A stretch of 64,000 nucleotides of DNA, taken from the NCBI RefSeq assembly GCF_011045215.1, contig NZ_CP049201.1; one strand, 5' to 3'. The notes beneath the pieces were generated by a model. It saw nothing but the letters and a program-made list of their open reading frames with translations, did not search any database and was not told the DNA's origin. Positions 5,751 through 24,490 of this stretch are shown here, in pieces. A program made the position numbers and the translations under genes. Every line of letters starts with the position of its first letter. The stretch's first letter is position 1. This stretch comes from Escherichia coli. GTDB lineage: Bacteria > Pseudomonadota > Gammaproteobacteria > Enterobacterales > Enterobacteriaceae.

Positions 5751-6212
5751 TTATTTCACTTCTTTAAAACCAGCGGCTTTCATCACCTGTTCCATTTGCG
5801 CCATAGTGATACCTTTTTTGGCATCTTCAGCAGAAACGTTGATTCCTGAAATACCCTGCAGGGCTTTAAAATCCACTTTTTCCATATCGATAGTCACGTT
5901 TTCCTGCGCGTAGGTATCGGTATAGGTTAATTTTTCTTCAACACCCGCGATGTTTTTGTATTTGGCGCTTAACGGCTCAAGTGTCTTGGCAGCATCTTCT
6001 TTGGTGGTAGCACCAATGGAGGCAAATTGAATTTTGGTTTCAGAAGATTGCTTAAGCACCTTGTCACCTTTGTAGACATAGGTAATGGCAATTTCAGTGC
6101 CGTTCAGATTGGCGCTGAATTTCTTCGATTCTTCTTTGTCACCGCAGCCAGCAAGAGAGAAAACCAGAACAGATGCAACAACAAGGGAAAACAGCTTATT
6201 GAAAGCCTTCAT
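5751..6212 (-). CDS. yehR: DUF1307 lipoprotein
   Basis: 153 aa from MKAFNKLFSLVVASVLVFSLAGCG (signal peptide plus lipobox LAGC). Confidence 0.85.
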   Translation of the reverse strand: MKAFNKLFSLVVASVLVFSLAGCGDKEESKKFSANLNGTEIAITYVYKGDKVLKQSSETKIQFASIGATTKEDAAKTLEPLSAKYKNIAGVEEKLTYTDTYAQENVTIDMEKVDFKALQGISGINVSAEDAKKGITMAQMEQVMKAAGFKEVK

Positions 6213-6336
6213 GTAAAACTCCATTTTATTTAATCAAGGAACTGGTGACTCTCACCAGGGGCTATATAGGATATGCCTAATACCGTGGCGTGAGCAGTCC
6301 GGAACTGGAGTAGAACTCTTAGTAAAAAGCACTATT

Positions 6337-8340
6337 TCATCCTTGTTGCTGAAGCATGGGGAATAATTGTTCGCACAGCAAAACACCGTTATTCATTGCT
6401 TCTACCCGTGCCTCGCTTTCTGTATTACGAAATTGTCCCAACACATGTGCCAGCCGATAAAAACCCACCGCGGTGAGGTCATTCGCCAGCAACTCTGCCT
6501 GACCAATAGCACTCTGTTCCTGATAGCGCCAGCCGTTATGGAGCAGTTGAATAAGTAATGCCTGGCAGCGCATCAGCAACTGATGAGCAGTAGACGGCAC
6601 AGGCAGAACGCTGGCAGAAGGTAGTGATGCCACCACAGGCGCAGTTTCTGCGTCCAGCGCCCAGGCACGAGTCTTTGTCATCATTACCTGTGGTTCCAGT
6701 GTCAATTGCCCATCAACAAAACTGACAAAGCCAGAAACCAGACACACGGGGTCGTCTGTTTGTTGCAAAAGCGCCGCCATGCGTTCAACGGCATAAGGCG
6801 CGCTGGCTGAGGCTGGCAGTGATAACGTCAGCAGATTATCTTCACCTTCGCCGCTGATTACCTGCGCATCCAGCGTTTGGCGGCTGCTATCCCAACCGAG
6901 TGAAATACACTCAGCGACCGGCAGAATAAATAAGTTATCGACCTGATTAAGAGGCCGTATGCAGGCGGGGGGACGCTGGCGTAAATATTCCCGCAAAGCC
7001 ACAATGCCCGGCTGGCGCAACGGCGCGCTCAACATTTGCCAGGCATCTGGCGACAGTGGAACAACACTACTCAAGCGGTTACGGGTCGCGAACAGCAGTT
7101 CGCCTTCGGCACTGCGACGCGCTGCTTGTGAAACAATTTGTCCACCTGCCAGTGCGCCAGCCTGAAAACTAAACAGCCGACGTTTTGCCGCGGGAGCGTT
7201 TTCTTGTTCGCTTCTCGGCCAACTACGCGAAAGATGCAAAATACTGCCGGTGTCGGGATCGGTAAACCAGATGCGTAAACCATAATGCTTAATATCCTGC
7301 CAGCAACGCATACCTAAAGACACCAGCCGCAGATGATCAAGCTTTGCTTCTCCGGCAATGCCAGAGCCAACGCCCGTGCGCCACGGCACAGGAGGAACTT
7401 CACCAACACTGTCGCGCCGGGCCATCTCTTGTGCGCAATTTAATCGACTGTTTAATGCCGCAAGCTGACGTAAGCATTCTCCGGCATGATAGTGGCTGGC
7501 GCGAGTGTGGAAGGCATCAACGCTTGCCCGTAGCTGTCGTAGTGATTCACTCACCCATCGCCAGTTGCAGCGTTCCGCCGCCTGCTGTGCGCGGCTGAAA
7601 GCGGCCTCGTAATGGATTGGCGGCTGGCTGATGCCGCCCAGCCATAATGCCTGACTTAATTGCTGAACATATTGACGACATGTTTTGCCTTCTTCGCTGG
7701 CAAACGGATCGTCAGATGATGTGACGTGTTCGCTGCGCATCTGCCAGATTAAATGAGTAAATTCCGCTTGCTGAGTTTTGGCCTCGACGAAGGCCTGCAC
7801 AGCCAGTACGACATGTTCGCAAAGTGTGCCTTCAATACAATCACAGCGGGCGAAGCGAATGCTGCTGCGGGAATAAAAACGCACATCACTCATCGGTAAG
7901 CGGGCTGAGGGAATTTTGCCAGGCGCACAGAACAACTCAATGGTGATGCCTTTAGCGACCAGCGCCTGTGCGCGTTTGCGGGTGGCATCGGGAAGGGTAG
8001 CCAGTTCTTCCAGCCAGATTGCCGGATCCCATTCCTCTTCTTTTCCCGTAGGCTGGGCGGTAGCACAAAGTCGTTGATAACTTAACACCAGCATCACGCG
8101 ATGACGGCACATGCCGCTGGCCCCGCAGCTGCACTGAGCCTCTTTCAGTGCCTGGCCGTTCGCCAGCTGGGTACGGACACCGTCACTGAAGGTGGCGATT
8201 AAAGCGCCGTTCTCATGGCTGATCTCCGGGACGTTGCCATTTTCCAGTTCCTTAAGACTGCGCTTAACAAAACCGGCATTGCTTAACGCTGTCAGGGCCT
8301 GCGGTGTCAGTTCTAATAATTCCGGACGTAGTGAATTCAT
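6337..8340 (-). CDS. yehQ: twin SWIM zinc-finger protein, last gene of the yehLMPQ cluster
   Basis: Two CxC...CxH SWIM-like motifs (CSCGASGMCRHRV and CDCIEGTLCEHVV); start placed at the ATG overlapping the yehP stop (ATGA at 8337-8340), giving 667 aa; ORF track extends to 8364. Confidence 0.75.
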   Translation of the reverse strand: MNSLRPELLELTPQALTALSNAGFVKRSLKELENGNVPEISHENGALIATFSDGVRTQLANGQALKEAQCSCGASGMCRHRVMLVLSYQRLCATAQPTGKEEEWDPAIWLEELATLPDATRKRAQALVAKGITIELFCAPGKIPSARLPMSDVRFYSRSSIRFARCDCIEGTLCEHVVLAVQAFVEAKTQQAEFTHLIWQMRSEHVTSSDDPFASEEGKTCRQYVQQLSQALWLGGISQPPIHYEAAFSRAQQAAERCNWRWVSESLRQLRASVDAFHTRASHYHAGECLRQLAALNSRLNCAQEMARRDSVGEVPPVPWRTGVGSGIAGEAKLDHLRLVSLGMRCWQDIKHYGLRIWFTDPDTGSILHLSRSWPRSEQENAPAAKRRLFSFQAGALAGGQIVSQAARRSAEGELLFATRNRLSSVVPLSPDAWQMLSAPLRQPGIVALREYLRQRPPACIRPLNQVDNLFILPVAECISLGWDSSRQTLDAQVISGEGEDNLLTLSLPASASAPYAVERMAALLQQTDDPVCLVSGFVSFVDGQLTLEPQVMMTKTRAWALDAETAPVVASLPSASVLPVPSTAHQLLMRCQALLIQLLHNGWRYQEQSAIGQAELLANDLTAVGFYRLAHVLGQFRNTESEARVEAMNNGVLLCEQLFPMLQQQG

Positions 8341-9473
8341 GACTGAAGATTCTCCGCAAGCCATGATGCCAGCTCGCCCGGTGTCATGGCGGCTATTTGT
8401 GCGCCGACATTTACCAGCGCCTGGGCCGTATCGTGGTCATAGCAAGGCGTTGCTGTGCTATCGAGCGCTGCCAGTCCCAGCACTTTGATGCCGCTCTGGA
8501 CACACTTTTTCACCTGATGCGTCAGTAATGATGATGAACCCCCTTCGTAAAAATCGCTCACGAGGATAATGACGCTTTTCGCTGGTTGTTCAATAAGTTG
8601 CCGACCATATTCCACGGCACTGGCGATATTGGTTCCGCCGCCTAATTGCACTTTCATTAATAACTCTACCGGATCGGCAACGTCTGCCGTGAGATCAACC
8701 ACGCTGGTGTCAAACGCCACCAGATGGGTACGAATGCCGGGTAACTGCCATAAACAGGCCGCCATCACCGCAGAGTGGATCACCGAATCGACCATCGAGC
8801 CGCTTTGATCAACCAGTAAGACCAGTTGCCATTGTTCGCTTTGGCGTTTAATGCGGCTGTTAAAGCGGGGGGATTCGATATACAACTTGCCGTGTTGCGG
8901 GTGCCAGTGTTGCAGGTTGGCGCGCAGAGTACTTTTGAAATCAAAGTTTCGCGCCAGTGGAATAAATGAGCGGCGACGGCGATCGCGGACACCAGAAAAA
9001 GCCTGACGAACTTCCTTTGCCAGTCGAGCCATAATTTCTTCAACAACCTGGCGCACTATCCGGCGGGCGGCAGCCAGTACTTCGGGATTCATCAGATGTT
9101 TGGTGTGCAAAACGGCGCGTAGCAGGCTTTCAGAAGGCTGCATACGTTCCAGCACGTCGAGATTCGTCACCACATCTTCAATGCCATAGCGCAGTACGGC
9201 ATCGCTTTCCAGCCGCTCAATCACCTGTTGCGGAAACAGCGTGTGAATACTGTTGATCCACTCAGGGGTGGTGAGATTTGAGCCACCTAATCCACCGGAG
9301 CGTTCACCACGCTGGAGCCGTTCAGGATCGCGCCCATACAGCCACTCCAGCGCGTGGTCTACCTGCCGGGCATTGTCATCCAGCCCACAAAGGGTCGTTT
9401 CTGCCGCTTCGCCAAGAATTAATCGCCAGCGTTGTAGCTCACGGGTAGTCAGAAGATCGTTCAGTTCAGACAT
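8337..9473 (-). CDS. yehP: von Willebrand factor A (VWA) domain protein
   Basis: 378 aa from MSELNDLLTTRELQ; MIDAS motif DQSGSM in LVLLVDQSGSMVDS; start overlaps the yehM 3' end by 8 nt. Confidence 0.85.
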   Translation of the reverse strand: MSELNDLLTTRELQRWRLILGEAAETTLCGLDDNARQVDHALEWLYGRDPERLQRGERSGGLGGSNLTTPEWINSIHTLFPQQVIERLESDAVLRYGIEDVVTNLDVLERMQPSESLLRAVLHTKHLMNPEVLAAARRIVRQVVEEIMARLAKEVRQAFSGVRDRRRRSFIPLARNFDFKSTLRANLQHWHPQHGKLYIESPRFNSRIKRQSEQWQLVLLVDQSGSMVDSVIHSAVMAACLWQLPGIRTHLVAFDTSVVDLTADVADPVELLMKVQLGGGTNIASAVEYGRQLIEQPAKSVIILVSDFYEGGSSSLLTHQVKKCVQSGIKVLGLAALDSTATPCYDHDTAQALVNVGAQIAAMTPGELASWLAENLQS

Positions 9474-11745
9474 GGAAAACTCCCCAGTGTTGCAGCGATG
9501 CCAGTGCCTGCTGTTCGAGTTGTTGATGATGTGCAATGGCTTGCGGAGGATAATGCAACGGCATTTGCAGCGCTGAAACAGGAAGCTGCGCAAGCTGGTA
9601 ATGCTCAAGCACCTGATGCGCCAGTGTCCCGCGTTCTCGTGGCGGTAGCCAGGCCATCGCCGCGCGCAAATCGGGCAAGGCGTTAATAAAATCGTCGTCA
9701 CTCAGTTGATTTAAATGACTACTGAAACCGGCGATAAATGCTGGTTGGCAGGCCAATTGATGACGGGCGAGCGCCAGCAAACCGTGCAGCGCCTCGCCGG
9801 ATTGTGCCGGGGATAACTGCGCCAGCATCGTCAGCGCCGCTTCGGCACTGGCGTTGGGATGTTCCAGACGCATCAGTGCGCCAAGAGCCGCGCCGCGATC
9901 CAGCGCCGGGACATGAATCGCCTGACTGCGGCGCTCCAGTAAGGCTACCGCCGCAGAAAGAAAAACGCCGGGTAAATTAACGCCGCTATGTAGATCGCGC
10001 AGGATATGGCAAAGCGCCTGCCAGCTATGCATGTGAGCGTGAAACTCCTTTTCATCTGGTCTGCCGTTAGATTCACACAGCCACAGCGTGCGATCGATAG
10101 CCGCGCATAACGTCGTTTGTAATATCTGCGCGCCTTGCATACCGCTAATTTCATCCAGCCGCCATAAGGCATATAGCACTTCCAGCGCCTGGCCCATTTC
10201 GGCAAATTGATTTTCCTGGGCGATTAATAATGTGAGTTGCTCCAGTAATTGCTCACTAAAGCTCGCCAGGCCCGCTAACGCCGCCTGGCTTAGACATGCG
10301 GTAATGCTGCCGATTCCACCCGCGTCCAGCATATCGGCTTCTAATTTATTGCGTGCGGCTTCCTGGAGCGTGGCACCAAAGCAGGCGGCCTCAATTAATG
10401 CCGCATGCTGGCTAAGCGGCTGGGTTAATTTCCACTGTTCTTCACCGTTACCCGCAAGCGTCAGTGTACTTCCGTGCTGGCGCACAATGCCGGGAATCTC
10501 CAGTATTGCCAGCCGATGTAACACCTGACTTTGCGCTAGTCCATTGGGGTTAAAGCGATTTAAGGTAAGCTCCACCGGAAGAGAGATTGCGGTACGTTCC
10601 AGTTCGCAGGTGACATCTTTTGGCAGAGGCGGTTGTGGCGTAGAAGGGGCAAGTTTACCGAATCCGTCACCCGCTAATGTGTCTATCAACGTTAGCAGAA
10701 TCGGATCGGTGTCGGGATGAATAACTCCGCGATAGCTCCACGGCAACGGCGCGTTCAGGGCTTCTTTAATCAGCGAGCCTGCTATGGCATCCAGCCAGTC
10801 AGTGCGTAACGGTAGTTTATGTCCGCGCAACTGTGCCAGCGCCATCGCATGCAGATGAGCGGCAGCCATATCCGCGGTCGAAGCAGGCAAGTGGTGTTGG
10901 CGCAAACGGGTAAGAACCGTTTTTAGCAGTTGTTCTCCCGCCTGCTGTAAGCCCCACTGCCAGCACCAGCTTTGCCAGACCGGGGCAGGCATTCCTGAAA
11001 GGTATCCTGCCAGCACATCAAGGCGCTTTTCACTGTAGGGTGTGAGATAACAACCTGTAACGGCATCTGCCAGCGAGGGCAATTCTGGCTTGTTAATGTC
11101 CTGCGGGCATTCGCGCCACATTTTTGCCAGTGCCGGAGCGTGCCAGCCACCGCAGACGACTAACACGTCGCCATTATTTTGCTGCACCGCCCATGCAATC
11201 CAGCGAGCCATAAAGGCTTCGCGCTGACGATTGAGTGCATCGCCGGGGAAATCGCCCCGCAGTTGGGCAAAATAGTGCGCCAGTGCAGAGGGTAATGCAG
11301 TTTGCTGGCTTTCATCTTCGAACAAGTGATCCCACAGGGTATCGCTGTTATCCATGCGGGAGGCACGCAGCAGCAAGGTCTGGCTTTCCTCTTGCGTTTC
11401 AGGCGAATCGTCCTCTTCTTCACTCTGTGCCCAGCAAGGCAAATCGATGAAGTAAGTTTGTGCCTGAATACGACGAGCGGCTTGTAGCGCCTGCCACTCC
11501 GGCGAAAATTCAGCAAATGGCGTCCAGGCACCACGCCCGGGGGCTGCACCGTCCTGATACTGGCAATAACTGTAAATAGCTACCGGAAGCTGGTGGGCTA
11601 AAAACAGTTCGTCTACCCGGTCATTAAAATCAGCCGGGCCTTCAATCAACACGTATCGTGGCCGCTGGCTTTCGATTAACGATTTCACCAGCCGGGCGCA
11701 GGCCGGACTATGATGCCGGATGCCGACAATTAACGGCTCGCTCAT
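9466..11745 (-). CDS. yehM: large uncharacterised protein of the yehLMPQ cluster
   Basis: 759 aa from MSEPLIVGIRHHSP; no domain recognised by eye; tightly packed between yehL and yehP. Confidence 0.8.
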   Translation of the reverse strand: MSEPLIVGIRHHSPACARLVKSLIESQRPRYVLIEGPADFNDRVDELFLAHQLPVAIYSYCQYQDGAAPGRGAWTPFAEFSPEWQALQAARRIQAQTYFIDLPCWAQSEEEDDSPETQEESQTLLLRASRMDNSDTLWDHLFEDESQQTALPSALAHYFAQLRGDFPGDALNRQREAFMARWIAWAVQQNNGDVLVVCGGWHAPALAKMWRECPQDINKPELPSLADAVTGCYLTPYSEKRLDVLAGYLSGMPAPVWQSWCWQWGLQQAGEQLLKTVLTRLRQHHLPASTADMAAAHLHAMALAQLRGHKLPLRTDWLDAIAGSLIKEALNAPLPWSYRGVIHPDTDPILLTLIDTLAGDGFGKLAPSTPQPPLPKDVTCELERTAISLPVELTLNRFNPNGLAQSQVLHRLAILEIPGIVRQHGSTLTLAGNGEEQWKLTQPLSQHAALIEAACFGATLQEAARNKLEADMLDAGGIGSITACLSQAALAGLASFSEQLLEQLTLLIAQENQFAEMGQALEVLYALWRLDEISGMQGAQILQTTLCAAIDRTLWLCESNGRPDEKEFHAHMHSWQALCHILRDLHSGVNLPGVFLSAAVALLERRSQAIHVPALDRGAALGALMRLEHPNASAEAALTMLAQLSPAQSGEALHGLLALARHQLACQPAFIAGFSSHLNQLSDDDFINALPDLRAAMAWLPPRERGTLAHQVLEHYQLAQLPVSALQMPLHYPPQAIAHHQQLEQQALASLQHWGVFHV

Positions 11746-11755
11746 GCATCTTTCC

Positions 11756-12844
11756 TCACGGCAGGCGGTGGCGGGCTTGATAATAAGCCTGCCAGTGAGC
11801 TTCTTTATGTGTGGCGACACGCTGTTCGAAGTAACGGCGCAGACGAGCGCGATCTTCTTCGTTATCTTTGACGATGGTTCCGGCAATACAGTCCACCAGG
11901 TCGGCAGGCTCCCCCGCGCGATTCGCTAAAAACCAGGCGCGGACGCCCACGGCGTGGGCCACGTTCACGGCTTCAGCGGTGGACATAATCGCTGTTAGTG
12001 TATCCATTGACGTTTTCTTTTCGCCGTTGGCACGCAGATCGCGGAAGGTGCGGACCAGTAACTCCAGTACCGCGTCAGGCACTTTATGCGGAATACCGCT
12101 ATGGGCCAGCAAACGCGCCGAAGCACTGGCGACAAGCTCCAGCTCTTGGGCGAAATCCATAATCGGAAAGACAGTTTCAAAATCGAAGCGACGCTTTAGC
12201 GCAGCACTCATTTCATTGACGCCGCGATCGCGGGTATTGGCAGTGGCAATAATATTAAAGCCTTCTCGCGCATAGAGCTGACTGGCTTCACCAGTGAGTT
12301 CCGGCACCGTCATCACCCTGTCAGAAAGCATACCTAACAGACAGTCTTGCACTTCCAGCGGTGTACGCGTTATCTCTTCAAAACGGACGATTTTGCCGTC
12401 GCGCATTCCCTGGTAAAGCGGGGCAGGGACCAGCGCTTCCGTTGATGGACCATGATTGATAAGCAGGGCGTAGTTCCAGCCGTACTTGATTTGATCTTCG
12501 GTAGTAGATGCGCCGCCCTGGATGGTTAACCCGGCATCGCCGCTAATAGAGGTTGCCAGTAATTCAGACAGGAGAGATTTTGCGGTGCCAGGTTCCCCCA
12601 CCAACATCAAACCGCGTCCGGTGGCAAGAGTGACTAACATACGTTCGACAGCGGAGGGACTAATCACCACTTTACGGCTAATATTTTGCGCGCTATCGCC
12701 AAGGATAAAAGCACGGGCCGCAGGCAAACTTAACTGCCAACCGGGCGGGCAAGGTGCGTTATCATTTTGTTTTAATTTTGCCAGTTCATCGGCGTATAAC
12801 ACAGCAGCAGGCGGACGCTGCAGATGATTATTCTGCGGTGACAT
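11756..12844 (-). CDS. yehL: MoxR-like AAA+ ATPase
   Basis: 362 aa from MSPQNNHLQRPP; Walker A GEPGTAKS, compact AAA+ core typical of MoxR/RavA-like ATPases. Confidence 0.85.
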   Translation of the reverse strand: MSPQNNHLQRPPAAVLYADELAKLKQNDNAPCPPGWQLSLPAARAFILGDSAQNISRKVVISPSAVERMLVTLATGRGLMLVGEPGTAKSLLSELLATSISGDAGLTIQGGASTTEDQIKYGWNYALLINHGPSTEALVPAPLYQGMRDGKIVRFEEITRTPLEVQDCLLGMLSDRVMTVPELTGEASQLYAREGFNIIATANTRDRGVNEMSAALKRRFDFETVFPIMDFAQELELVASASARLLAHSGIPHKVPDAVLELLVRTFRDLRANGEKKTSMDTLTAIMSTAEAVNVAHAVGVRAWFLANRAGEPADLVDCIAGTIVKDNEEDRARLRRYFEQRVATHKEAHWQAYYQARHRLP

Positions 12845-12951
12845 ATATTCATCCCTGAAATGTATTAATGAAATAAACGATATTTTACGCGCAATAAATG
12901 TTTGGCGCATTAGTTGTTTGAGCGAAAAATATCTGGAAAGCAGATTACAGT

Positions 12952-12990
12952 AAATAAAAAAACCTGCTGGTGAGGCAGGTTCTTTTATTT
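12952..12990. terminator. hairpin (aacctgc tggtgag gcaggtt) flanked by an A-tract and a T-tract; candidate bidirectional terminator upstream of yehL
   Basis: Seen in sequence: 7-bp stem, aaaaaaaa upstream and cttttattt downstream. Confidence 0.4.
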
Positions 12991-13276
12991 ACTATTTTCA
13001 GGCCTAACACCACAGCCTGTGCAACATCGTGTTCCAACGAACGAATTATAACCACGGCTGGACCCCGTTGCAATTAAGATAATGAGATTTATAATCCAGA
13101 CCGTTGGGACGTTGCGCCGGATCGAACCTATTTCAAGTCCTGGCTACCGGACGGGTGGTGCTGCAGGTGGTGCCCTGATCCGGAGTGCAACATCGTGGTC
13201 CAACATACGTAAACCAGTATCGACAGGCAGTGTAAGGGTAAGGTGCTGGTGTTGCGCTCCTTAATAAGGAGAGCGG

Positions 13277-13366
13277 ATGGACTCGCTGACACAAAAGTTA
13301 ACCGTGCTCATTGCTGTACTGGAGCTATTAGTAGCTCTGTTACGTTTGATTGATTTGTTGAAGTAA
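13277..13366 (+). CDS. candidate small hydrophobic protein (29 aa), unannotated as far as I can tell
   Basis: ATG preceded 6 nt upstream by AAGGAG; encodes MDSLTQKLTVLIAVLELLVALLRLIDLLK; followed by a GC hairpin; candidate promoter TTGCAA-N16-TATAAT at 13068-13095. Confidence 0.35.
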   Translation: MDSLTQKLTVLIAVLELLVALLRLIDLLK

Positions 13367-13389
13367 CGGGCAAATTGAAACGCATCTAA

Positions 13390-13415
13390 GGGGGAAAACC
13401 GCTTCCCCCTTTAAT
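13390..13415 (+). terminator. hairpin gggggaa-aaccgc-ttccccc followed by a short T-run, downstream of the small ORF
   Basis: Seen in sequence; T-tract is short (ttt) so strength is uncertain. Confidence 0.35.
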
Positions 13416-13475
13416 AAAGCTATACTCGTCATACTTCAAGTTGCATGTGCTGCGACTTGAATTATCTAGAGTATA

Positions 13476-13793
13476 TTATTCTATTTCTTGGTTGAATATA
13501 TTCTGTAGTTCACGATTAAAAATTGCTATTACAGTTTCAGGTGATTCACCTCGTAATTTCCGCTCATCAATACACTCATCTCTTATATAAATCAACGCAT
13601 CATTTATTAGCGGGTCAGCATCTTCTCGATCACGTTGATGAAATGTTGGATGTAGCCGGAATCGCTCCAGTCGATAGACGGAACCTGTAAATAATTCAGA
13701 GCATTTATGGATCTCAAGTCTGAAGGAAAACGGATCTTCAGGTACAGGGACCTCATAATCGTAAATAGCAACCAGCTCTTTTTGCACGATCAT
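13476..13793 (-). CDS. yehK: uncharacterised 105 aa protein
   Basis: 105 aa ORF (MIVQKELVAIYDYEVPVPEDPF...) in the K-12 yehK position immediately downstream of yehI. Confidence 0.75.
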   Translation of the reverse strand: MIVQKELVAIYDYEVPVPEDPFSFRLEIHKCSELFTGSVYRLERFRLHPTFHQRDREDADPLINDALIYIRDECIDERKLRGESPETVIAIFNRELQNIFNQEIE

Positions 13794-13853
13794 CGCTTTC
13801 CCCGCTGGTAAGTCGTGTTGATAACGGGCAGTTGCATCACTGCCCGCTGTGTT

Positions 13854-16800
13854 TTAATGGAAAATGACGTCAGCTGCGCTTAACGCCTCACTCAAATCAA
13901 ACACATCGAGTTCGGCAAAAGTGACGGATTTATTGTTACGGTAAACCCGAAGAGAATGGAAGCTCATCAGCGCTTTGCTATCAGCACTGTAGTGGTTAAA
14001 ACCGGGTGAAAACTTAAGGACCAGCCGGTACTCACCCAGGTCATAGACAAATGCGTCCTCATAGCCTGACTCCCAGCCTTTGTATCGCATTCCCATAAGT
14101 TGCCCAACGGTAGCGGATTTACCTTCCCAGCGAGTCAGGCTGTTACTGGTTGACTCGTCAGGTGTGAGCAGCACCGTGCGGCGCGACAACTGGCGAAAAG
14201 GCGGCATAATTTCGTAATCGGCAAAAAGCTGTGCAAATTCACTGCGCATTTCTACTGTCATTTCTAACGGGTGGGCAATGCCAATCAGAGCGTCCGCAGG
14301 CAGGTCAATTGGCTCATCTTGCGCATTGCAGAACTCCCCCTCTGCGGCCACACGAAAGGCGTTGAGTAAACAACGCGGTTCATTTGCCGGATAAACCCCC
14401 CATATTAATCGCTGGGTAACCAGACGGGTAAAGGGATGATTAACAAACAGAGAATGAAAATCTGCCAGCGACCAGCGTCGGGTGGTACGTAGGGCCGTTT
14501 CAAGACGCGGGAGCAGGTTTTTGCTCACCTGAGTGGCATCTTTTTTTAGCCCTTTTAGTTGGGCCAGTGCCTCGGGCGCTTTCAGTTGATCGTCATCGGC
14601 GCGCAACCGGGGAACGCTTTTCTGGCGAACGTTTTGCTGATCAAAGATAATCGGGTTGAGGTTTTCATCGAAGCGAACGGTAAACTGCCGGGGACCAAAA
14701 TCAAAAATCAACGCCTGCGGATCATCAAGGCCAAGGGTTGGGACTAATCTGTCCGCTAGCTCTTCCTGGCTTAGCCCGCGATTTTCTGCGACCACCTGAA
14801 GAAATTCCGCCGCGTTATCACGTAAGGGGCGGGATTTAGCCCGTTGCGATATATGATGCAGCTGTATCAGCGCCATATCATTATTCATCAGGGTAAGGAT
14901 GTTCAGGCCGCTGACAGCACGGGCAGATTTGCCTTCTTGTGGCCAGGCGAGGATCTGTGTCGTCAGATCCCGTGCCGTGCTTTCGTCACCAAAGAGACTT
15001 AACGCCAGAAATGCCCAGTTGTCTTTTGCGGGGGCACCAGCTTGTTGCCACGCAGTGAAGAGATCCCAGGCAAAAGCTGCCAGCGTTTGTGGCTGGCAGA
15101 ACGTTTTCAGTTGTTCCAGCCCGCTATAAAAACGTCCCCCCTGGGTAAAGCGCAGCATTTCGCCGAAAATTTCCAGAGCGTCATCGGTAACAGTTTGATT
15201 ATTAGTGATAAGGCGCGGCCTGGACCACATTTGCGGATGCCAGAAATCAGGGGCTTTTGGAATGCGTGCCGGGTAAATCTCTATTGGACTCTGTTTAAGT
15301 AATTGTTCCAGGGCAGGCCATAGATCTGTACGCTGCCAACGATTGGCTAAAGTTTGTAGCAATTCGCCATGCCCATGTTCGTAAAGTAAACGCAGGGCAA
15401 GTAATGCAGCTTCGCTTTTATCGCTGGATTTGGTGAAGACAAGAGGGATAAGTGCAGTAGCCGTATGTTCCGGCCAATGTAAAATCCACTGGCGAGCCAG
15501 ATTACGCTGGCCCGCAAAACGGTGCCAGACGCGGGCAATGGGCAGGGCCAGTTCTGTTGCGCCGAAATTTAAAATTAACGGAAATGTTTCTTTTGGACGA
15601 TGTGAAAAAGCCAACAGCAGACCTGGTAGCGCATCCAATCCGAGGATACTGAGAAAATAGTCCTCACCCGCGAACAGATGCTTTTTCTCATTGATACGCA
15701 GCCAGAAGGTCAAAGCTATCTCACGCGGCAACTGTGCCAATAAATACAGGTTCCAGACACTCTTTTCCGGACGATAACGTGAGTAGTTGTCATTTTCCCA
15801 TATGTTAATTAACGCTTCTACGTGACCACTGCGAAGCGCCTGTTCTGCTAATGGTGCTTCCGGGGAGTTCCAGCCATTCAGGATCTCTTCAACCCGCCCC
15901 TGGTAGTAATGCCACTCAACAATGAGTGAATTGCGTGCAGCATCCAGTTTTCCGGGGAGTATATAATTCAAAAACAGCCATACATCATCCCCAAAACCCA
16001 GTTCCTGTAATACAACTCGCCCACTTTTTTGTTCCATGCGTTCCGCAAGAGATTCCGTGCTGAAATAACGGGCAGGCTCAGTGGCGGCAAGCCTCTCTCG
16101 TTCGCCTGGTTGCCAGTAAACTTGCGGAGTTAATTCGAGCCGTGCCAAATCAAGACGTGGAGCTGTCATTTTTTTCTTACTACGCCACGGTGGTGAAACG
16201 AGGATTTCAGGCAGATTGCTGTTATCGGTGCCATCAATAACCGGTTTTGGCAGTGCCGATAAATAACTCTTCAGCACTGCCCTGGCTTGAGTACTTAACC
16301 ACGGCATCACTTCTGCTGCCAGTTGTGGCTGCGATGCCATCAGCGTTTGTAACAGCGTACGCCAGTATTCATCGCGTGCTTTTTGCTGTGCAGGCAGCTT
16401 TTTGTCTTCGATGATTGGATAACCAGGGCGGGCTGGTGGTTCTGTTAACGCCAGCAGTTCTGCCAGTGCGGCGAGCGTCGCATGGGGGAAGTTTTTATGG
16501 TATTTAGCTACACGTTGCAGGCTGGGTTTGTTTTTATCAGCCACCAGTAGCAAGGTGCGGATGACTTGCGGATGGTTAATTTGTACCAGCAGACTGCCGC
16601 AATCTTCTTTATAGGCATACATCGCGAGGCGCGGAATGGCTGCCAGTCCTTGTTCGCGCAAAAGGGCGGCGCAGGCCGCGTAGCCGAAGTGGTTTTCATG
16701 CGACATGTAGCTGGCTTCTCGATCGCTAAATATATCCTGGCTCCAGTAGTGTTCGAGTTTTCTCACCGCTGTGGGGTCATTAGCTACAACTTTTAACCAC

Positions 16801-17486
16801 TCCTTAGAATGAAAATGAGTTCGCGGGCATTCAAGGCCTACCAACTCATTGGCTATTTCTGGTTTTTCCGGGAGGATCAGCGCAATAAAAGGGCGGCGAA
16901 CTTTGGTTATTCCTGGTAGTGCGGCAATGAGTTTGTCGGCGCAACGCTGCCAGCAGCTTTCCTCTGCCAGAGAGAGGTGTTTACGCAGTCGGAGATCGAA
17001 TTCGTTATAGGTTTCTGAGCGATAACCATAGCCATAGTCCTCGTTCTGATACTGCAATGTGACTACCAGAGGATCACTCTCATAACACCGTGCAATAAAC
17101 TGGCGTGCAATCACCACCTCAGTCGCATATTCCAGCCCCTCTTGTTGGACGATTTCGTCGAGCAACTGTTGGCTGTCATTTTGCGCGATACAGGCTAGCG
17201 CCGCCATTGTCCGGGCCGGGATTGAGGGTTTGTGTTCGCCGATCAAGTTGATGGCCTGCGTGATGGCGGACTGCCACTCCAGTGAAAAATTTTCATAACG
17301 CCAGACAATGTTTTTTTTCTTCTCAGCTTTTTGTAGCAATTCATCACCCAGTGTCTGAATGATGCTTTCAGTGATAACAGGCACTGGTTCGCCCGGCCAA
17401 TTGCGATGGCTGAGTGGTGTTTTACCCTTTTTATATTTCAGTTCCAGTTGGGCGTTATCAGCCAGCCACGGTAATTCCTTGTCCAT
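13854..17486 (-). CDS. yehI: giant DUF4132-type protein, paralog of the two upstream genes but lacking the N-terminal WGR-like domain
   Basis: 1210 aa; begins at the PWLAD motif that follows the WGR domain in the paralogs; C-terminal region aligns with both upstream paralogs. Confidence 0.85.
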   Translation of the reverse strand: MDKELPWLADNAQLELKYKKGKTPLSHRNWPGEPVPVITESIIQTLGDELLQKAEKKKNIVWRYENFSLEWQSAITQAINLIGEHKPSIPARTMAALACIAQNDSQQLLDEIVQQEGLEYATEVVIARQFIARCYESDPLVVTLQYQNEDYGYGYRSETYNEFDLRLRKHLSLAEESCWQRCADKLIAALPGITKVRRPFIALILPEKPEIANELVGLECPRTHFHSKEWLKVVANDPTAVRKLEHYWSQDIFSDREASYMSHENHFGYAACAALLREQGLAAIPRLAMYAYKEDCGSLLVQINHPQVIRTLLLVADKNKPSLQRVAKYHKNFPHATLAALAELLALTEPPARPGYPIIEDKKLPAQQKARDEYWRTLLQTLMASQPQLAAEVMPWLSTQARAVLKSYLSALPKPVIDGTDNSNLPEILVSPPWRSKKKMTAPRLDLARLELTPQVYWQPGERERLAATEPARYFSTESLAERMEQKSGRVVLQELGFGDDVWLFLNYILPGKLDAARNSLIVEWHYYQGRVEEILNGWNSPEAPLAEQALRSGHVEALINIWENDNYSRYRPEKSVWNLYLLAQLPREIALTFWLRINEKKHLFAGEDYFLSILGLDALPGLLLAFSHRPKETFPLILNFGATELALPIARVWHRFAGQRNLARQWILHWPEHTATALIPLVFTKSSDKSEAALLALRLLYEHGHGELLQTLANRWQRTDLWPALEQLLKQSPIEIYPARIPKAPDFWHPQMWSRPRLITNNQTVTDDALEIFGEMLRFTQGGRFYSGLEQLKTFCQPQTLAAFAWDLFTAWQQAGAPAKDNWAFLALSLFGDESTARDLTTQILAWPQEGKSARAVSGLNILTLMNNDMALIQLHHISQRAKSRPLRDNAAEFLQVVAENRGLSQEELADRLVPTLGLDDPQALIFDFGPRQFTVRFDENLNPIIFDQQNVRQKSVPRLRADDDQLKAPEALAQLKGLKKDATQVSKNLLPRLETALRTTRRWSLADFHSLFVNHPFTRLVTQRLIWGVYPANEPRCLLNAFRVAAEGEFCNAQDEPIDLPADALIGIAHPLEMTVEMRSEFAQLFADYEIMPPFRQLSRRTVLLTPDESTSNSLTRWEGKSATVGQLMGMRYKGWESGYEDAFVYDLGEYRLVLKFSPGFNHYSADSKALMSFHSLRVYRNNKSVTFAELDVFDLSEALSAADVIFH

Positions 17487-17495
17487 GCTCTTTCC

Positions 17496-20400
17496 TTATT
17501 CAAACAGGGCTTCAATATCGTTAATTAGCTCGCTGGCGGTGATGGCATCGAGTACGGAGAACAGCGCTTCCTGTGTTGAATTACTCCCCCAGCCATAGCT
17601 TTCCGCTTTGCCTTCCCATAGCCACAGCTTGCTTAAGAGCTGCTCAGCGCTAAGTTCGGCTGGTGACATACCCACTGCAAAGCCTTCATCGATTTCCATG
17701 ATTAACGACCAGCGGCCCAGAGGTTTGATCATCCAGCCGATCCAGCCTCCATCCTGTGGTTCGCCCTTTATCCAGCCTTTATTCGCCAGCCCCATTACCC
17801 GACCGCTCGGGCATTTTCTGCCTGCCCAGCGGGTCAGTTCGCTGGCGTTGCGCTCGGCTTCTGTCAGGGCGTAACTGTTACGGTCAAGCTGGCGGAACGG
17901 TGGTAACAGTTCGTAGTCGGCAAAAAGCTGACCAAAGGCGGCAGCATCCGTCGGTGATATTTCCAGAACGTGAGGAATACCAATAGAGATATCGCCTTCC
18001 GGCAGGGTGAAAAGATCATCGTCAGCGGTGCTGTAGCTGTTATCTTCCGCTACGCGAAAGCAAGCCTGCAGCTGGTTTTCGGCGCTATAAACGCCCCAAA
18101 TCAGACGGCGGGTTAAGTGGCGAACCAGCGGATGCTCAACCAGGAAGAGCTGAAAGTTTTCCGGTGACCAGCGGCGACGCAGGCACATGGCGGATTCCAG
18201 CCTTGCTACCTGCTGGGCGGCGACGGTACGCGCATCTTTTTTCAGCAGTTTGTAGCGGTTAACAGCATCGTTCGCCTGTGATTCATCATCGCTTTTGTTT
18301 GGTTTGGGCAGGTCTTTCAGACGGCTGCCAGAAACATCACGCACAAACGGTTTTAAGGTTTCATCAAAGCTGACGGTGAACTGGCGTGAGCCGAAATCCA
18401 GCAGCAACGAACCGTTATCATCCAGACCGAGATCCGGTGCTAACCGATCTTCAAGCTCTGCCACCGTGAGTTCGCGGCTTTCGGCAATGTCGGCAATTTT
18501 TTCTTTTGCCCGCTCCTGTAATGCTTTGAATTTCAGTTTCTGGGCAATACCGTTAAGCTGCATCAGGGCGATATCACTACCGATAGCGGCGAGAATATCC
18601 AACCCAACGGTGGCGCGTTTATGCTGGGATTCACCAGGCCAGGCGCGTATTAATGGCGTCAGTTTGCGGGCGGTGTCATCGTTACCAAGAACGCCTAACG
18701 CAGTGAACGCCCAACTCTCTTTCGACGGTGCGCCCGCAGTCAGCCAGGCGGTAAACAGATCCCAGGCAAATTCAGCCAGTGAGTCGGCGGTACAGGCATC
18801 TTTCACCTGCAATAATCCCGGATACAGGGCCTCTTCCTGAGGGAAGCGGAGCATTTCACCGAGGTGCTGGAGTGCGCTATCTGGCAGTACCTTGCTGCTA
18901 TTTTTGAGTTTCGGGCGAGTCCATAATGGAGGTTGATAAAACAACGGTAAAGGGGGGATTTTCGCCGGGTATTTACCCACAGGACTGTTGTCGTTATTTT
19001 TATTTTGAGTTTCCCAGGGCGGCGAGACTAGTACCATTGGTAGAATTTCTGAGTTTGCAAAATCTTCATTGCGACTATTCAGCAATTGCTGACATTGTTG
19101 CAATAAATTTACCGCTTGCGACGATAATCCGATGACTAATTTTTCGACCAATAAAGGATTTGCATTAAGTAATGAAACCAGCAACGTATGTTTGCGTTTA
19201 TCATCTTTTTTTACCAATGCTTCGGCTAATGCCGCTATCGTGGCAGAAGGAAAATTTTCGGCACTTTTTATTAGTCGTTCATAACAGCGTTTATTAGTAT
19301 CGGCGGCTTCGATGAGTGCCGTAATGGCCAACGGATGATTAATACATTTCAGTACGTCACCGCAATTATCTTCTTCAGCATAGGGAGCCAGGCGAGCCAG
19401 TGCCGCTATACCTTGCTCCCGTAATACCGTAGCTGACCAACTGGCACCATAGGTGTTAAATACATCAATGTATTGATAGTTCTCCAGTATTTCGAGCGTG
19501 AATGGATCTGTCGCTACCAGTTTCAACATTTCAAGTTGTGGAACATCTGCGACCTGGTGTAAACGATGTACGATCTCATGGGCCACTTCGGGTATTTCTG
19601 GCATTAAAATGGCAATTAACGGTTGGCGATAGAGTGATATATCTGGTAACGCAACGAGTAATTTTGCAATGCAATTTTGCCATACTTCTTCTTCTGCTAG
19701 TGATAAATGTTTACGCAGACGTAAACTAAATTTGTCGTTATTCCTTCTATAACTGTCCTTGCTGCTATCTGCATAATTAATAAAGAAAGTCAAATGTTCA
19801 TCTTTATAGTCAAAATCGAAATCAATTTGCCACCAGAAGATGACAGTTTCAGTTGCGTATTCGATACCGAAGGTGCTTACAATTTCATCCAGCAACTCGG
19901 ATGAGGTTTCATCATTCCAGCCCTGACAAAAACATATTTCCAGAAAAGTAAGTACCGCCATAGTACGCGCGGGTATCTTAGTCTTTTGGGCCTTAATTAA
20001 GCTGATTGCCTGGCTAATCGCATCAGCCCATTCATCAGAGCATGAGCTGTAATCGAAAGTCAGATTTTTATAATAATGATAAGTACGATTTGCCAATCGG
20101 GAAATTAAATTTTGTTTCTCGGGTTTGGTTGGTTTTTTTACTGGCTCTCCCGGCCAAAGGCGGTGGCTGAGGGCATGGCGGGCAATATTCGGGGGAAGAA
20201 TAATGGGATCGTTGTCTGCCAGCCAGGGTAAACCATTAGTTGCTGCCTGGCGATTTATTGAGGCTTTTTCCTCTGTGACCAGGACTTTCTTTGCTGAGGC
20301 ATCATGTGAGTGAGCGTTAGCGTCTACTTGCTCCACATACCCCTTCTTCACCTTCTCCGCAATCAGCTTCAGTGCTGCTTTTTCCGCCGCCGCAGTATCT

Positions 20401-20528
20401 GCAAAGCTTTTTACCTGACTTTGCCCGTTGGTACCGACTTTACCCCAGTTAATATGCAGCTCGTTTCCCTGCTGCTCCACCGCCCAGAATTTATGTGATT
20501 TTTCGTCCTGATAAATATAGGTTTTCAT
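17496..20528 (-). CDS. giant WGR-domain/DUF4132-type protein, middle paralog of the tandem array
   Basis: 1010 aa; N-terminal about 65 aa near-identical to the 1269 aa paralog (MKTYIYQDEKSHKFWAVEQQGNELHINWGKVG...); conserved C-terminus ...ITASELINDIEALFE; 9 bp from the yehI start. Confidence 0.8.
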   Translation of the reverse strand: MKTYIYQDEKSHKFWAVEQQGNELHINWGKVGTNGQSQVKSFADTAAAEKAALKLIAEKVKKGYVEQVDANAHSHDASAKKVLVTEEKASINRQAATNGLPWLADNDPIILPPNIARHALSHRLWPGEPVKKPTKPEKQNLISRLANRTYHYYKNLTFDYSSCSDEWADAISQAISLIKAQKTKIPARTMAVLTFLEICFCQGWNDETSSELLDEIVSTFGIEYATETVIFWWQIDFDFDYKDEHLTFFINYADSSKDSYRRNNDKFSLRLRKHLSLAEEEVWQNCIAKLLVALPDISLYRQPLIAILMPEIPEVAHEIVHRLHQVADVPQLEMLKLVATDPFTLEILENYQYIDVFNTYGASWSATVLREQGIAALARLAPYAEEDNCGDVLKCINHPLAITALIEAADTNKRCYERLIKSAENFPSATIAALAEALVKKDDKRKHTLLVSLLNANPLLVEKLVIGLSSQAVNLLQQCQQLLNSRNEDFANSEILPMVLVSPPWETQNKNNDNSPVGKYPAKIPPLPLFYQPPLWTRPKLKNSSKVLPDSALQHLGEMLRFPQEEALYPGLLQVKDACTADSLAEFAWDLFTAWLTAGAPSKESWAFTALGVLGNDDTARKLTPLIRAWPGESQHKRATVGLDILAAIGSDIALMQLNGIAQKLKFKALQERAKEKIADIAESRELTVAELEDRLAPDLGLDDNGSLLLDFGSRQFTVSFDETLKPFVRDVSGSRLKDLPKPNKSDDESQANDAVNRYKLLKKDARTVAAQQVARLESAMCLRRRWSPENFQLFLVEHPLVRHLTRRLIWGVYSAENQLQACFRVAEDNSYSTADDDLFTLPEGDISIGIPHVLEISPTDAAAFGQLFADYELLPPFRQLDRNSYALTEAERNASELTRWAGRKCPSGRVMGLANKGWIKGEPQDGGWIGWMIKPLGRWSLIMEIDEGFAVGMSPAELSAEQLLSKLWLWEGKAESYGWGSNSTQEALFSVLDAITASELINDIEALFE

Positions 20529-24350: not shown

Positions 24351-24449
24351 TCTGCATCCCTGTAATTTTATCCAGTTAAATGCAGATGCTACCAGTATTT
24401 ATGCGGGTTAGAGAGAGACAAAATCGCAAGAAAACAACTTTAGGAATTT

Positions 24450-24479
24450 ATAAAGAAAAGGCGCTGTCGATGCAGCGCC
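24450..24479 (-). terminator. rho-independent terminator of metG
   Basis: Minus-strand hairpin ggcgctg/cagcgcc followed by a U-rich run (plus-strand aaagaaaa), 12 nt past the metG stop. Confidence 0.5.
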
Positions 24480-24490
24480 TTGAAGGGGGA

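Follow-up and report, generated by a model that had tools for sequence, protein, structure and literature searches.

The MoxR, DUF5682, VWA and SWIM genes represented in Escherichia coli by yehL, yehM, yehP and yehQ formed, together with DUF4132 genes, a single row that was conserved across several phyla, with co-oriented and closely packed genes. In our best explanation of this row, E. coli has in yehLMPQ its version of a cytoplasmic machine with five components, the fifth being the DUF4132 family (MolR/YehH and YehI). The machine included probable DNA-binding parts and, judging by a predicted fold, a probable hydrolase, YehM. We tentatively favour a physiological stress role, in which an ATP-driven YehL-YehP remodeller and a YehM hydrolase scaffold would act on protein-nucleic-acid complexes.

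A gene row shared by several phyla

The window, i.e. the whole 64,000-nucleotide stretch of E. coli DNA that was analysed, contained four ORFs that matched the RefSeq annotation of yehL, yehM, yehP and yehQ (Table 1). As read directly from the sequence, yehP and yehQ overlapped by 4 nt (common ATGA), yehM and yehP overlapped by 8 nt (common ATGTCTGA), and yehL was separated from yehM by a 10-nt spacer with a Shine-Dalgarno-like GGAAAG. The tight coupling and the two stop/start overlaps described in a first-pass annotation of this DNA were therefore real. Its remark that the cluster had no assigned role also held, as our searches turned up neither a publication nor a PADLOC model or solved structure for the yehLMPQ system.

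Table 1. Positions in the window of the genes, motifs and RNA features discussed in the text
Feature	Position	Strand	Description
yehQ	6337-8340	minus	SWIM protein, 667 aa
SWIM 2, C166-D-C168-x5-C174-E-H176	7813-7845	minus	YehQ; in proteobacterial orthologues
SWIM 1, C70-S-C72-x5-C78-R-H80	8101-8133	minus	YehQ; invariant in 35/35 orthologues
yehP	8337-9473	minus	CoxE-type VWA protein, 378 aa, complete MIDAS
MIDAS DQSGS	8796-8810	minus	YehP residues 222-226
yehM	9466-11745	minus	DUF5682 protein, 759 aa
G199-G200-W-H202	11140-11151	minus	YehM; candidate second GxxH motif
G8-I-R10-H11-H12	11710-11724	minus	YehM; candidate first GxxH-type catalytic motif
yehL	11756-12844	minus	MoxR-type AAA+ ATPase, 362 aa, YehL subfamily
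Walker A GEPGTAKS	12575-12598	minus	YehL residues 83-90
Hairpin	12952-12990	minus	Terminator / 3' end of OrzO antitoxin RNA
OrzO-P antitoxin RNA	12956-13031	minus	Rfam, 99.9 bits
yehI	13854-17486	minus	DUF4132 protein, 1210 aa, paralogue 3; Pfam DUF4132 8.8e-47
molR-like	17496-20528	minus	WGR + DUF4132, 1010 aa, paralogue 2; Pfam WGR 1.4e-18, DUF4132 8.6e-52
molR/yehH-like	20541-24350	minus	WGR + DUF4132, 1269 aa, paralogue 1; RefSeq: DUF4132 domain-containing protein

Among 75 assessable loci from Gamma- and Betaproteobacteria, Xanthomonadales, Actinomycetota and Myxococcota, 72 had at least one DUF4132 gene in the same co-oriented row as the MoxR, DUF5682, VWA and SWIM genes. The usual order was DUF4132 (one to three or more copies, often with WGR)-MoxR-DUF5682-VWA-SWIM, and at least two tandem DUF4132 copies were present in 33 of the 72 loci. 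In most loci the DUF4132 gene was located directly upstream of the MoxR gene, with a median gap of 29 nt (at most 100 nt at 57 of the 73 measured junctions), and the median gap from MoxR to DUF5682 was -4 nt. The same five families occurred in shuffled order in Burkholderia, where DUF4132 came last, and on a Sinorhizobium plasmid, where it was placed between DUF5682 and VWA. A few loci (L005, L031, L040 and L052) had no detectable DUF4132 gene. No further conserved neighbour, including a client enzyme gene, was found beside the module in 86 loci. Sequence identity decreased from YehL (63-75%) through YehP (56-71%) and YehM (38-48%) to YehQ (26-36%), and was about 33-38% for DUF4132. The partnership with the WGR array, as originally proposed, would have fallen had the two gene sets never been linked outside Enterobacteriaceae. 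Since DUF4132 genes outside Escherichia were normally in the same row, in several phyla, this refutation failed, and the partnership had stronger support than the proposal claimed.

E. coli was an exception to the joined row because insertion of yehK and zorO-orzO had split it. The gap of about 1 kb between yehLMPQ and the DUF4132 array contained yehK and the zorO-orzO toxin-antitoxin locus, the latter sitting as an insertion between yehK and yehL. The hairpin from which an independent operon promoter had been deduced was indeed a terminator, but it belonged to the inserted OrzO antitoxin RNA. Therefore, the transcriptional split was a lineage-specific accident and no design feature of the row. 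A separate yehL promoter in E. coli was nevertheless plausible: H-NS binds the intergenic region and yehL/yehM levels rise in hns/stpA mutants. In this species, H-NS silences the region of the yehL promoter.

Components of the predicted machine

YehL matched Pfam AAA_5 (1.6e-33), and its name is that of one among seven MoxR subfamilies (PMC3893208). In 22 orthologues, the Walker A motif, the Walker B-like RFEE, the sensor-1/Arg-finger TANTRDR and KRRF were invariant. YehP matched Pfam VWA_CoxE (6.7e-72), and its MIDAS residues (D222-x-S224-x-S226, T281 and D307) were also invariant in orthologues, so both motifs reported in the first-pass annotation withstood alignment. In RavA-ViaA, the other MoxR AAA+/VWA pair of E. 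coli, a MoxR ATPase gene adjoins a VWA/MIDAS gene as in yehLP, and a hexameric motor with an adaptor complex is expected for both pairs. However, YehL belonged to another MoxR subfamily and matched no RavA model in NCBIfam, YehP was CoxE-type, and the two-gene RavA-ViaA operon has no counterparts of the three other, obligatory partners (DUF5682, SWIM and DUF4132/WGR). The top solved-structure sequence match for YehL was midasin (8.8e-15). In midasin (Rea1), AAA_5 modules and a helical linker are joined to a MIDAS domain, which removes factors from a nucleoprotein particle; unlike the Yeh parts, which are separate proteins, midasin is one very large eukaryotic polypeptide containing six AAA modules.

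YehM had been described as lacking a recognisable domain, which was wrong: it matched Pfam DUF5682 (6e-99), and its model had a recognisable fold. An N-terminal TraB/ChaN/EreA (erythromycin-esterase)-like alpha/beta domain (approximately residues 1-250) was followed by a HEAT-like helical C-terminal half, and the invariant residues (including His, Glu and Arg) were mostly within the N-terminal domain. Across 32 sequences, down to 28% identity, R10 and H11 of the first candidate motif were invariant and H12 was at least 90% conserved; G199 and H202 of the second were invariant. By inspection, the first motif resembled GSIH of YbaP, the E. coli TraB-family protein. In an hhalign comparison of YehM with YbaP the sole paired segment joined the second motif with VGALH, at a non-significant E-value of 0.24. 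The suggested kinship with TraB/TIKI enzymes was based on predicted fold and motif inspection. Compared with the TIKI/TraB/PrgY/GumN/ChaN/erythromycin-esterase/RRSP/HopBA1 superfamily, the domain in YehM, a predicted enzyme, was followed in the same protein by some 500 residues of HEAT-like repeats and was encoded within a MoxR-VWA operon.

The YehQ model consisted of two N-terminal SWIM motifs (Pfam E-values 1e-3 and 0.21), a helical bundle, a beta-rich middle (approximately residues 330-560) and, at the C-terminus, another helical bundle, with weak matches to tandem-OB-like (RPA-like) folds. The earlier description of a twin-SWIM protein was correct for the window, but across the 35 aligned orthologues only SWIM 1 was universally conserved, and the Cys and His residues of SWIM 2 were missing from the actinobacterial proteins. 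The three DUF4132 paralogues of the array included two with a detected WGR domain, which according to the literature is a DNA-binding domain of MolR-like proteins. The WGR region of paralogue 2 matched PDB 2ra8 (1.8e-19), and paralogue 1, which shared 31-60% identity with the other two, had a WGR-like match at its N-terminus.

Proposed mode of action

In our model, YehL would form a hexamer that, with YehP as its MIDAS adaptor, makes up an ATP-driven remodeller comparable to RavA-ViaA, CbbQ-CbbO, NorQ-NorD and midasin. YehM would serve as the docking site for YehP; in some genomes YehP was fused with DUF5682 as a single protein. YehM would also contribute a metal-dependent hydrolysis, most likely of a peptidase type. 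Jumbo phages are documented to encode a MoxR-vWA pair to which a peptidase is fused (PMC7824862). The WGR domains of the MolR paralogues and YehQ, with its SWIM and RPA-like OB folds, may direct the complex to protein-nucleic-acid assemblies, and specificity would be set by YehQ and the often duplicated DUF4132 proteins, both of which evolve fast. The machine could thereby clear or remodel proteins on DNA that is damaged or abnormal, a role that we prefer over dedicated phage defence. In eukaryotic DNA-protein crosslink proteolysis, SPRTN/Wss1 with p97/Cdc48 likewise brings together an AAA+ unfoldase, a protease activated by DNA and domains reading DNA structure; the analogy is functional only, no component being homologous.

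A physiological role was favoured by the prevalence of the locus in E. coli, its ordinary flanks, the lack of a significant PADLOC match and the membership of WGR and DUF4132 genes in the DdrO radiation regulon of Deinococcus. A 7.9 kb query covering window positions 6000-13900, with yehLMPQ, yehK and zorO-orzO, was at least 80% present in 5200 of 5426 (96%) complete E. coli genomes, mostly at 95-99% identity. Counting against the machine as the best explanation were the absence of a canonical LexA box (CTGT-N8-ACAG) anywhere in the window, the lack of a WGR domain detectable with Pfam in YehI and of a detected one in many actinobacterial DUF4132 genes, the YbaP E-value, the dispensability and decay of the locus in some lineages, and the fact that ChaN, among the top fold matches of YehM, binds haem and is not an enzyme.

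Alternative readings of the row

In an anti-phage or other conflict system, a serious though less likely alternative in our judgement, invading nucleic acid would be sensed by YehQ and the duplicated WGR/DUF4132 proteins, MoxR-VWA would act as an NTP-dependent switch, and YehM would cleave host or phage proteins as a hydrolase effector. The combination of an NTPase, a vWA protein, a peptidase-like domain and fast-evolving, tandemly duplicated sensor-like parts resembled the MoxR-vWA conflict systems known from comparative genomics, and the fold relatives of YehM included the toxin/effector domains HopBA1, RRSP and PMT. As in the ternary MoxR-vWA-beta-propeller systems (bpMoxR), the MoxR ATPase and its vWA partner were coupled to extra sensor/effector proteins, and YehL weakly matched Pfam bpMoxR over residues 51-102 (0.0021); however, the partner set differed, and no propeller was found among Pfam matches of the four Yeh proteins or in the YehM and YehQ models. 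The patchy distribution with some plasmid copies, the H-NS silencing and the loss from some lineages would suit such a system, as would the dispensability of the locus and its decay in K-12, ST131 L1a and Shigella sonnei. On the other hand, none of the seven proteins had a significant match in PADLOC-DB 2.0.0 (only a marginal one to its WGR_XIII model, E 0.0047), the flanks of six annotated loci contained ordinary genes and no defence genes, and the module was conserved in many actinomycete genera and was not found in phage genomes. Near-universality at one fixed chromosomal site, as seen in E. coli, is unusual for defence systems. The nucleic-acid-sensing or conflict role suggested by the first-pass annotation rested on domain analogy and weak fold matches, and no evidence located the system within defence islands.

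A classical MoxR-VWA maturation chaperone, for metal or cofactor insertion or for assembly of an enzyme complex encoded elsewhere, with MolR-type proteins as DNA-binding regulators of the pathway, was slightly less likely still but likewise a serious alternative. Characterised MoxR-VWA pairs are remodellers or maturases (PMC3893208), with MoxR, NorQ/D, CbbQ/O, CoxD/E and RavA/ViaA all regarded as maturation factors. CoxD-CoxE, NorQ-NorD, CbbQ-CbbO, GvpN and CobS-CobT/BchI-BchD likewise act on a large partner protein through an AAA_5/MoxR motor paired with a VWA-MIDAS adaptor; YehP fell into the CoxE family and weakly matched a cobaltochelatase subunit model (6e-4), and YehL weakly matched a GvpN model. 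The fold match to haem-binding ChaN and the legacy name of molR, 'molybdate metabolism regulator', pointed the same way. However, the neighbourhood had neither a client enzyme gene nor a CobN/BchH-like subunit, the large partners being, unlike those of chelatases, a TraB-like/HEAT protein and WGR/DUF4132 proteins, and three of the five components carried nucleic-acid-type rather than cofactor-handling modules. Moreover, molybdenum genes do not co-vary with WGR/DUF4132 genes in Deinococcus, and K-12, where molR is a pseudogene, is not known to have a molybdenum defect.

A silenced, decaying remnant without current function in Escherichia would agree with the H-NS silencing, the K-12 molR pseudogene and the deletions or disruptions in successful lineages, but it was improbable given the intact four yehLMPQ and three DUF4132 ORFs in the window, the retention of all catalytic motifs and the prevalence in complete genomes. 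Finally, an independent four-gene yehLMPQ that lies beside the WGR/DUF4132 array by coincidence of the Escherichia chromosome was extremely unlikely: the intervening yehK, toxin-antitoxin locus and terminator, the differing promoters (molR is activated by BglJ-RcsB) and the few loci without DUF4132 were outweighed by synteny across phyla, which already contradicted it, with an association that outlasted gene-order shuffling.

The yehLMPQ row and its linkage to DUF4132 genes

The window was Escherichia DNA (best identity to complete E. coli genomes 97.7%) in an orientation that was the reverse of K-12, and the yehL, yehM, yehP and yehQ ORFs were arranged head to tail on its minus strand. The first-pass annotation had described four tightly coupled genes with overlapping starts and stops, and direct reading of the junctions at the nucleotide level agreed with it. 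Namely, yehP and yehQ had an ATGA in common, yehM and yehP overlapped by 8 nt, and a 10-nt spacer with a Shine-Dalgarno-like GGAAAG separated yehL from yehM. At least 80% of a 7.9 kb query (window 6000-13900, comprising the four genes, yehK and the zorO-orzO locus) was found in 5200 of the 5426 complete E. coli genomes. Thus, the ORFs, junctions, Pfam domains and E. coli prevalence confirmed the original observation of yehLMPQ, with corrections to the family of YehM, the second SWIM finger of YehQ and a nearby hairpin. The accompanying interpretation was partly supported, and its coupling of these genes to the neighbouring WGR array was right.

Features of the yehLMPQ region in the window and a DUF5682-VWA_CoxE fusion found at a related genome locus (L005)
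Feature	Location	Strand	Description
yehQ	6337-8340	-	667 aa; Pfam SWIM, 1e-3 and 0.21
yehP	8337-9473	-	378 aa; Pfam VWA_CoxE, 6.7e-72
yehM	9466-11745	-	759 aa; Pfam DUF5682, 6e-99
yehL	11756-12844	-	362 aa; Pfam AAA_5, 1.6e-33
OrzO-P antitoxin RNA	12956-13031	-	Rfam, 99.9 bits
Promoter-like sites	13045-13095		back to back
zorO toxin ORF	13277-13366	+	29 aa; encodes MDSLTQKLTVLIAVLELLVALLRLIDLLK
Hairpin after zorO	~13380-13405		
yehK	13476-13793		105 aa; no family match
yehI	13854-17486		DUF4132 only, without WGR
molR-like paralogue	17496-20528		1010 aa; WGR 1.4e-18 and DUF4132 8.6e-52
molR-like paralogue	20541-24350		1269 aa; WGR-type N-terminus
DUF5682-VWA_CoxE fusion	L005, 10001-13540		also proteins P0258, P0165, P0173, P0222, P0225 and P0228

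YehM was chosen as the search probe because it was the most distinctive of the proteins. The DUF5682 family gave 1487 matches in a word-indexed search, 2295 clusters at 50% identity in an exhaustive search, and at least 576 matches that were confirmed in a set of genomes limited to one per species. In Luteimonas, Serratia fonticola and a metagenomic contig, gene calls with precomputed Pfam matches revealed a row consisting of a WGR+DUF4132 gene (~1290 aa) followed by AAA_5, DUF5682, VWA_CoxE and SWIM genes. We then considered the best 80 genome loci, which were annotated by single-sequence phmmer with the proteins of the window as seeds. At 72 of the 75 loci having enough upstream DNA, one or more DUF4132 genes were co-oriented in the row of the MoxR gene, and in 70 of these 72 they were located directly upstream. 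Inside the 10 kb flank there was one DUF4132 copy in 39 loci, two in 12, and three or more in 21. The median gap was 29 nt between the DUF4132 and MoxR genes and -4 nt between the MoxR and DUF5682 genes, and a VWA_CoxE gene was present at essentially every locus with enough sequence. The partnership with the WGR array was therefore borne out further than had been proposed. Moreover, the linkage extended outside Enterobacteriaceae: the module occurred in Enterobacterales, in other proteobacterial orders (Burkholderiales, Neisseriales and Xanthomonadales), in many actinomycete genera and in Myxococcota.

The association also outlasted rearrangement of the gene order. Two Burkholderia loci had the SWIM gene and then the DUF4132 gene, and the order on the conjugative plasmid pBSY16_2 of Sinorhizobium sp. 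RAC02 (L087, 7872-18360) was AAA, DUF5682, DUF4132, VWA, SWIM. Among the related loci, no extra flanking gene was conserved past genus-level synteny. Taken together, this linkage and the lack of any other conserved neighbour meant that the unit is five protein families. We rejected yehK, yehR and yehS as partners of the module since none of them had a homologue at any other of the 86 related loci.

Two loci from Myxococcota (L040 and L052) had the MoxR, DUF5682 and VWA genes and a truncated one (L031) had only MoxR and DUF5682; SWIM and DUF4132 genes were undetected with E. coli seeds at all three, where ORF calling in the high-GC contigs was ambiguous. These loci may represent a three-gene variant or contain very divergent partners. 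In Salinispora cortesiana (L073, 3145-5133), a second, more divergent VWA and MoxR pair was located directly upstream of the five-gene module.

The DUF4132 array and the elements inserted next to it

The three tandem DUF4132 paralogues of the window had a mosaic relationship. The 1269-aa and 1010-aa proteins were 60% identical over their C-terminal 500 residues and only 36% identical over their N-terminal halves. Massilia, Lentzea, Glycomyces and Actinomadura were among the other genera in which tandem DUF4132 arrays with two, three or more copies had arisen independently. The homologues in Luteimonas, Serratia fonticola and the metagenomic contig carried both WGR and DUF4132, and a crude WGR model did not detect this domain in the DUF4132 genes of several actinobacterial lineages. 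Therefore, we consider that DUF4132 is the feature that stays constant, to which WGR is frequently added. The WGR domain has been described as a DNA-binding domain of MolR-like proteins, and the one in the molR-like protein was related to the WGR domain of PARP.

It has been reported that molR belongs to the LexA regulon. Within the 64-kb window there was no canonical LexA box (CTGT-N8-ACAG), and the region upstream of the first molR-like gene (24350-24490) had, by eye, only a poor three-mismatch resemblance to it, TACTGGTAGCATCTGCAT. Accordingly, the remark about the LexA regulon was given no weight.

The E. coli row was atypical in that insertion of yehK and the zorO-orzO locus had separated the DUF4132 array from yehL. 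The latter was a type I toxin-antitoxin system (12956-13366) located between yehK and yehL, and zorO has also been listed next to yehL in a paper on a Shigella genome. The hairpin at 12952-12990, previously taken as a sign that yehLMPQ had its own promoter, was in fact the 3' end of the OrzO-P RNA. As for yehK, it seemed to be an orphan gene, specific to Escherichia, that had been inserted into the module.

A conserved motor and its variable partners

Every AAA+ catalytic element was retained in YehL, including Walker A, Walker B, sensor 1, the arginine finger and sensor 2. The GEPGTAKS, RFEE, TANTRDR and KRRF motifs were invariant in 22 orthologues from four phyla, which together with the AAA_5 match upheld the initial assignment of YehL as a MoxR AAA+ protein with a GEPGTAKS Walker A. 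Its nearest solved relative by sequence was midasin (8.8e-15). The identification of YehP, encoded two genes downstream of yehL, as a VWA protein with an intact MIDAS also held: D222, S224, S226, T281 and D307 were all present and invariant. Inside yehP, at 8600-8615 on the minus strand, one change (GAG to GAA) weakened a Shine-Dalgarno-like stimulator, and the shifted product would be without the final 75 residues of the VWA domain.

MoxR-VWA pairs are widespread, and the client is known for few of them. The yehLMPQ genes shared this familiar motor-adaptor pair and may work in a similar way to the MoxR-VWA remodellers, but they did not belong to the RavA-ViaA, CbbQO, NorQD or chelatase sets. 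In NCBIfam, YehL had no match to a RavA/ViaA equivalog and only weak ones to GvpN, MadB and McrB, and YehP had no match to ViaA. The genes were not members of the beta-propeller ternary system either, to which the bpMoxR match was only marginal.

The first-pass annotation had found no recognisable domain in YehM. However, the protein aligned to positions 1-695 of the 727 in the DUF5682 model, and its N-terminal domain had the alpha/beta fold common to the TIKI/TraB/EreA/ChaN superfamily. The invariant residues formed a polar cluster in this TraB-like fold and were mostly N-terminal (R10, H11, E35, H51, E83, D101, R175, E176, G199 and H202). Toxin-type fold relatives were also among the YehM matches. 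Paired GxxH motifs and a Glu typify the TIKI/TraB superfamily, and by eye the G8-x-R-H-H, IE35GP and G199-G-x-H202 segments of YehM corresponded to GSIH, VEAD and VGALH of the E. coli TraB-family protein YbaP. An hhalign comparison of the YehM profile with YbaP aligned only the second GxxH segment (E 0.24); since this was not significant, we do not claim sequence homology between them. Membership of YehM in the TIKI/TraB/EreA/ChaN fold was thus supported, and YehM might be catalytically equivalent to the TraB-type enzymes.

Some uncultured bacteria encoded DUF5682 and VWA_CoxE as a single fused protein of ~1120-1185 aa. By the Rosetta-stone argument, such fusions point to YehM and YehP acting in contact with each other. 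No DUF4132 gene adjoined the fusion at L005.

Both SWIM fingers that had been noticed in YehQ were present in the window, but only the first was kept across the family. Namely, C70-x-C72-x5-C78-R-H80 was invariant in 35 of 35 orthologues, whereas the Cys and His residues of the second (C166-H176) were gone in the actinobacterial ones. The middle region of YehQ gave tandem-OB-like matches and may resemble the ssDNA-binding OB folds of RPA70 DBD-A/B or HIN domains. Among solved structures, the YehM, YehQ and YehP profiles had no PDB match. Identity to distant phyla decreased from YehL (63-75%) to YehP (56-71%), YehM (38-48%) and YehQ (26-36%), and was ~33-38% for the DUF4132 proteins. Such a gradient is to be expected if a conserved engine works with parts that vary to set the specificity.

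Possible roles of the five-gene module

By analogy with other MoxR-VWA pairs (PMC3893208), YehL would be a hexameric motor and YehP its MIDAS adaptor. The latter would dock onto YehM, which could carry out hydrolysis, probably in the manner of a peptidase; jumbo phages are known to encode MoxR-vWA pairs fused to a peptidase (PMC7824862). The WGR domain together with YehQ may steer the complex to protein-nucleic-acid assemblies. One specific version of this scheme, which we regard as a long shot, was that the five proteins constitute a bacterial DNA-directed AAA+-driven protease clearing proteins that have become stuck to DNA, for example in DNA-protein crosslinks or as poisoned topoisomerases. 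In this case, WGR would read DNA ends or breaks, the putative OB folds of YehQ would read ssDNA, YehL and YehP would pull the adduct, and YehM would cut it. Functionally, such a system would parallel eukaryotic SPRTN/Wss1 with p97 without being homologous to it.

With respect to physiology, we lean towards a stress role rather than dedicated phage defence since the locus was near-universal in E. coli at a fixed site, had ordinary flanking genes in six annotated loci and had no significant PADLOC match for its seven proteins. In PADLOC-DB 2.0.0, YehL, YehM, YehP and YehQ had no match, and the DUF4132 paralogues had only a marginal one to WGR_XIII (E 0.0047). Additionally, WGR and DUF4132 genes are part of the Deinococcus DdrO radiation regulon, which also favoured a stress role. 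The reading of the module as an anti-phage or other conflict system was still alive despite the fixed site, the ordinary flanks and the PADLOC result, given that the DUF4132 gene was tandemly duplicated, the locus was silenced by H-NS and had been lost in K-12, ST131 L1a and Shigella sonnei, the module was found on some plasmids, and YehM had relatives with toxin-type folds. A classical maturase role, in which the module would serve as a chaperone for cofactor or enzyme assembly, was possible, but no conserved client gene was located near the module.

YehL has been mentioned only as the type member of one of seven MoxR subfamilies, and the name of this subfamily was already in use in the literature by 2014 (PMC3893208). 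Although it was present in E. coli, we found no paper studying it. In keeping with the initial statement that no role had been assigned to yehLMPQ, we found no functional study of these genes or of the five-gene module and none on DUF5682, and DUF4132 was mentioned only incidentally. RefSeq and Pfam already give the domain names. The set of partners is uncharacterised and comprises a TraB-like/HEAT protein, a SWIM/OB-like protein and the duplicated WGR/DUF4132 proteins. The present analysis added the five-component unit, its spread across several phyla, a probable hydrolase and two kinds of likely nucleic-acid readers, turning four "y-genes" into a concrete, testable and broadly conserved machine. 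If this machine acts on protein-DNA complexes or invading DNA, surveillance systems coupled to AAA+ ATPases would gain a new class, and a maturase role would imply a client that has so far escaped recognition.

Six PHROGs families (phrog_30700, 33984, 31592, 29006, 36602 and 20839) were near-identical to YehM, YehP, YehQ and the molR-like protein. A collection of phage genomes had no real match to the module genes, and we therefore rejected these families as phage genes. They were probably host DNA included in a mis-delimited prophage and constituted an annotation trap.
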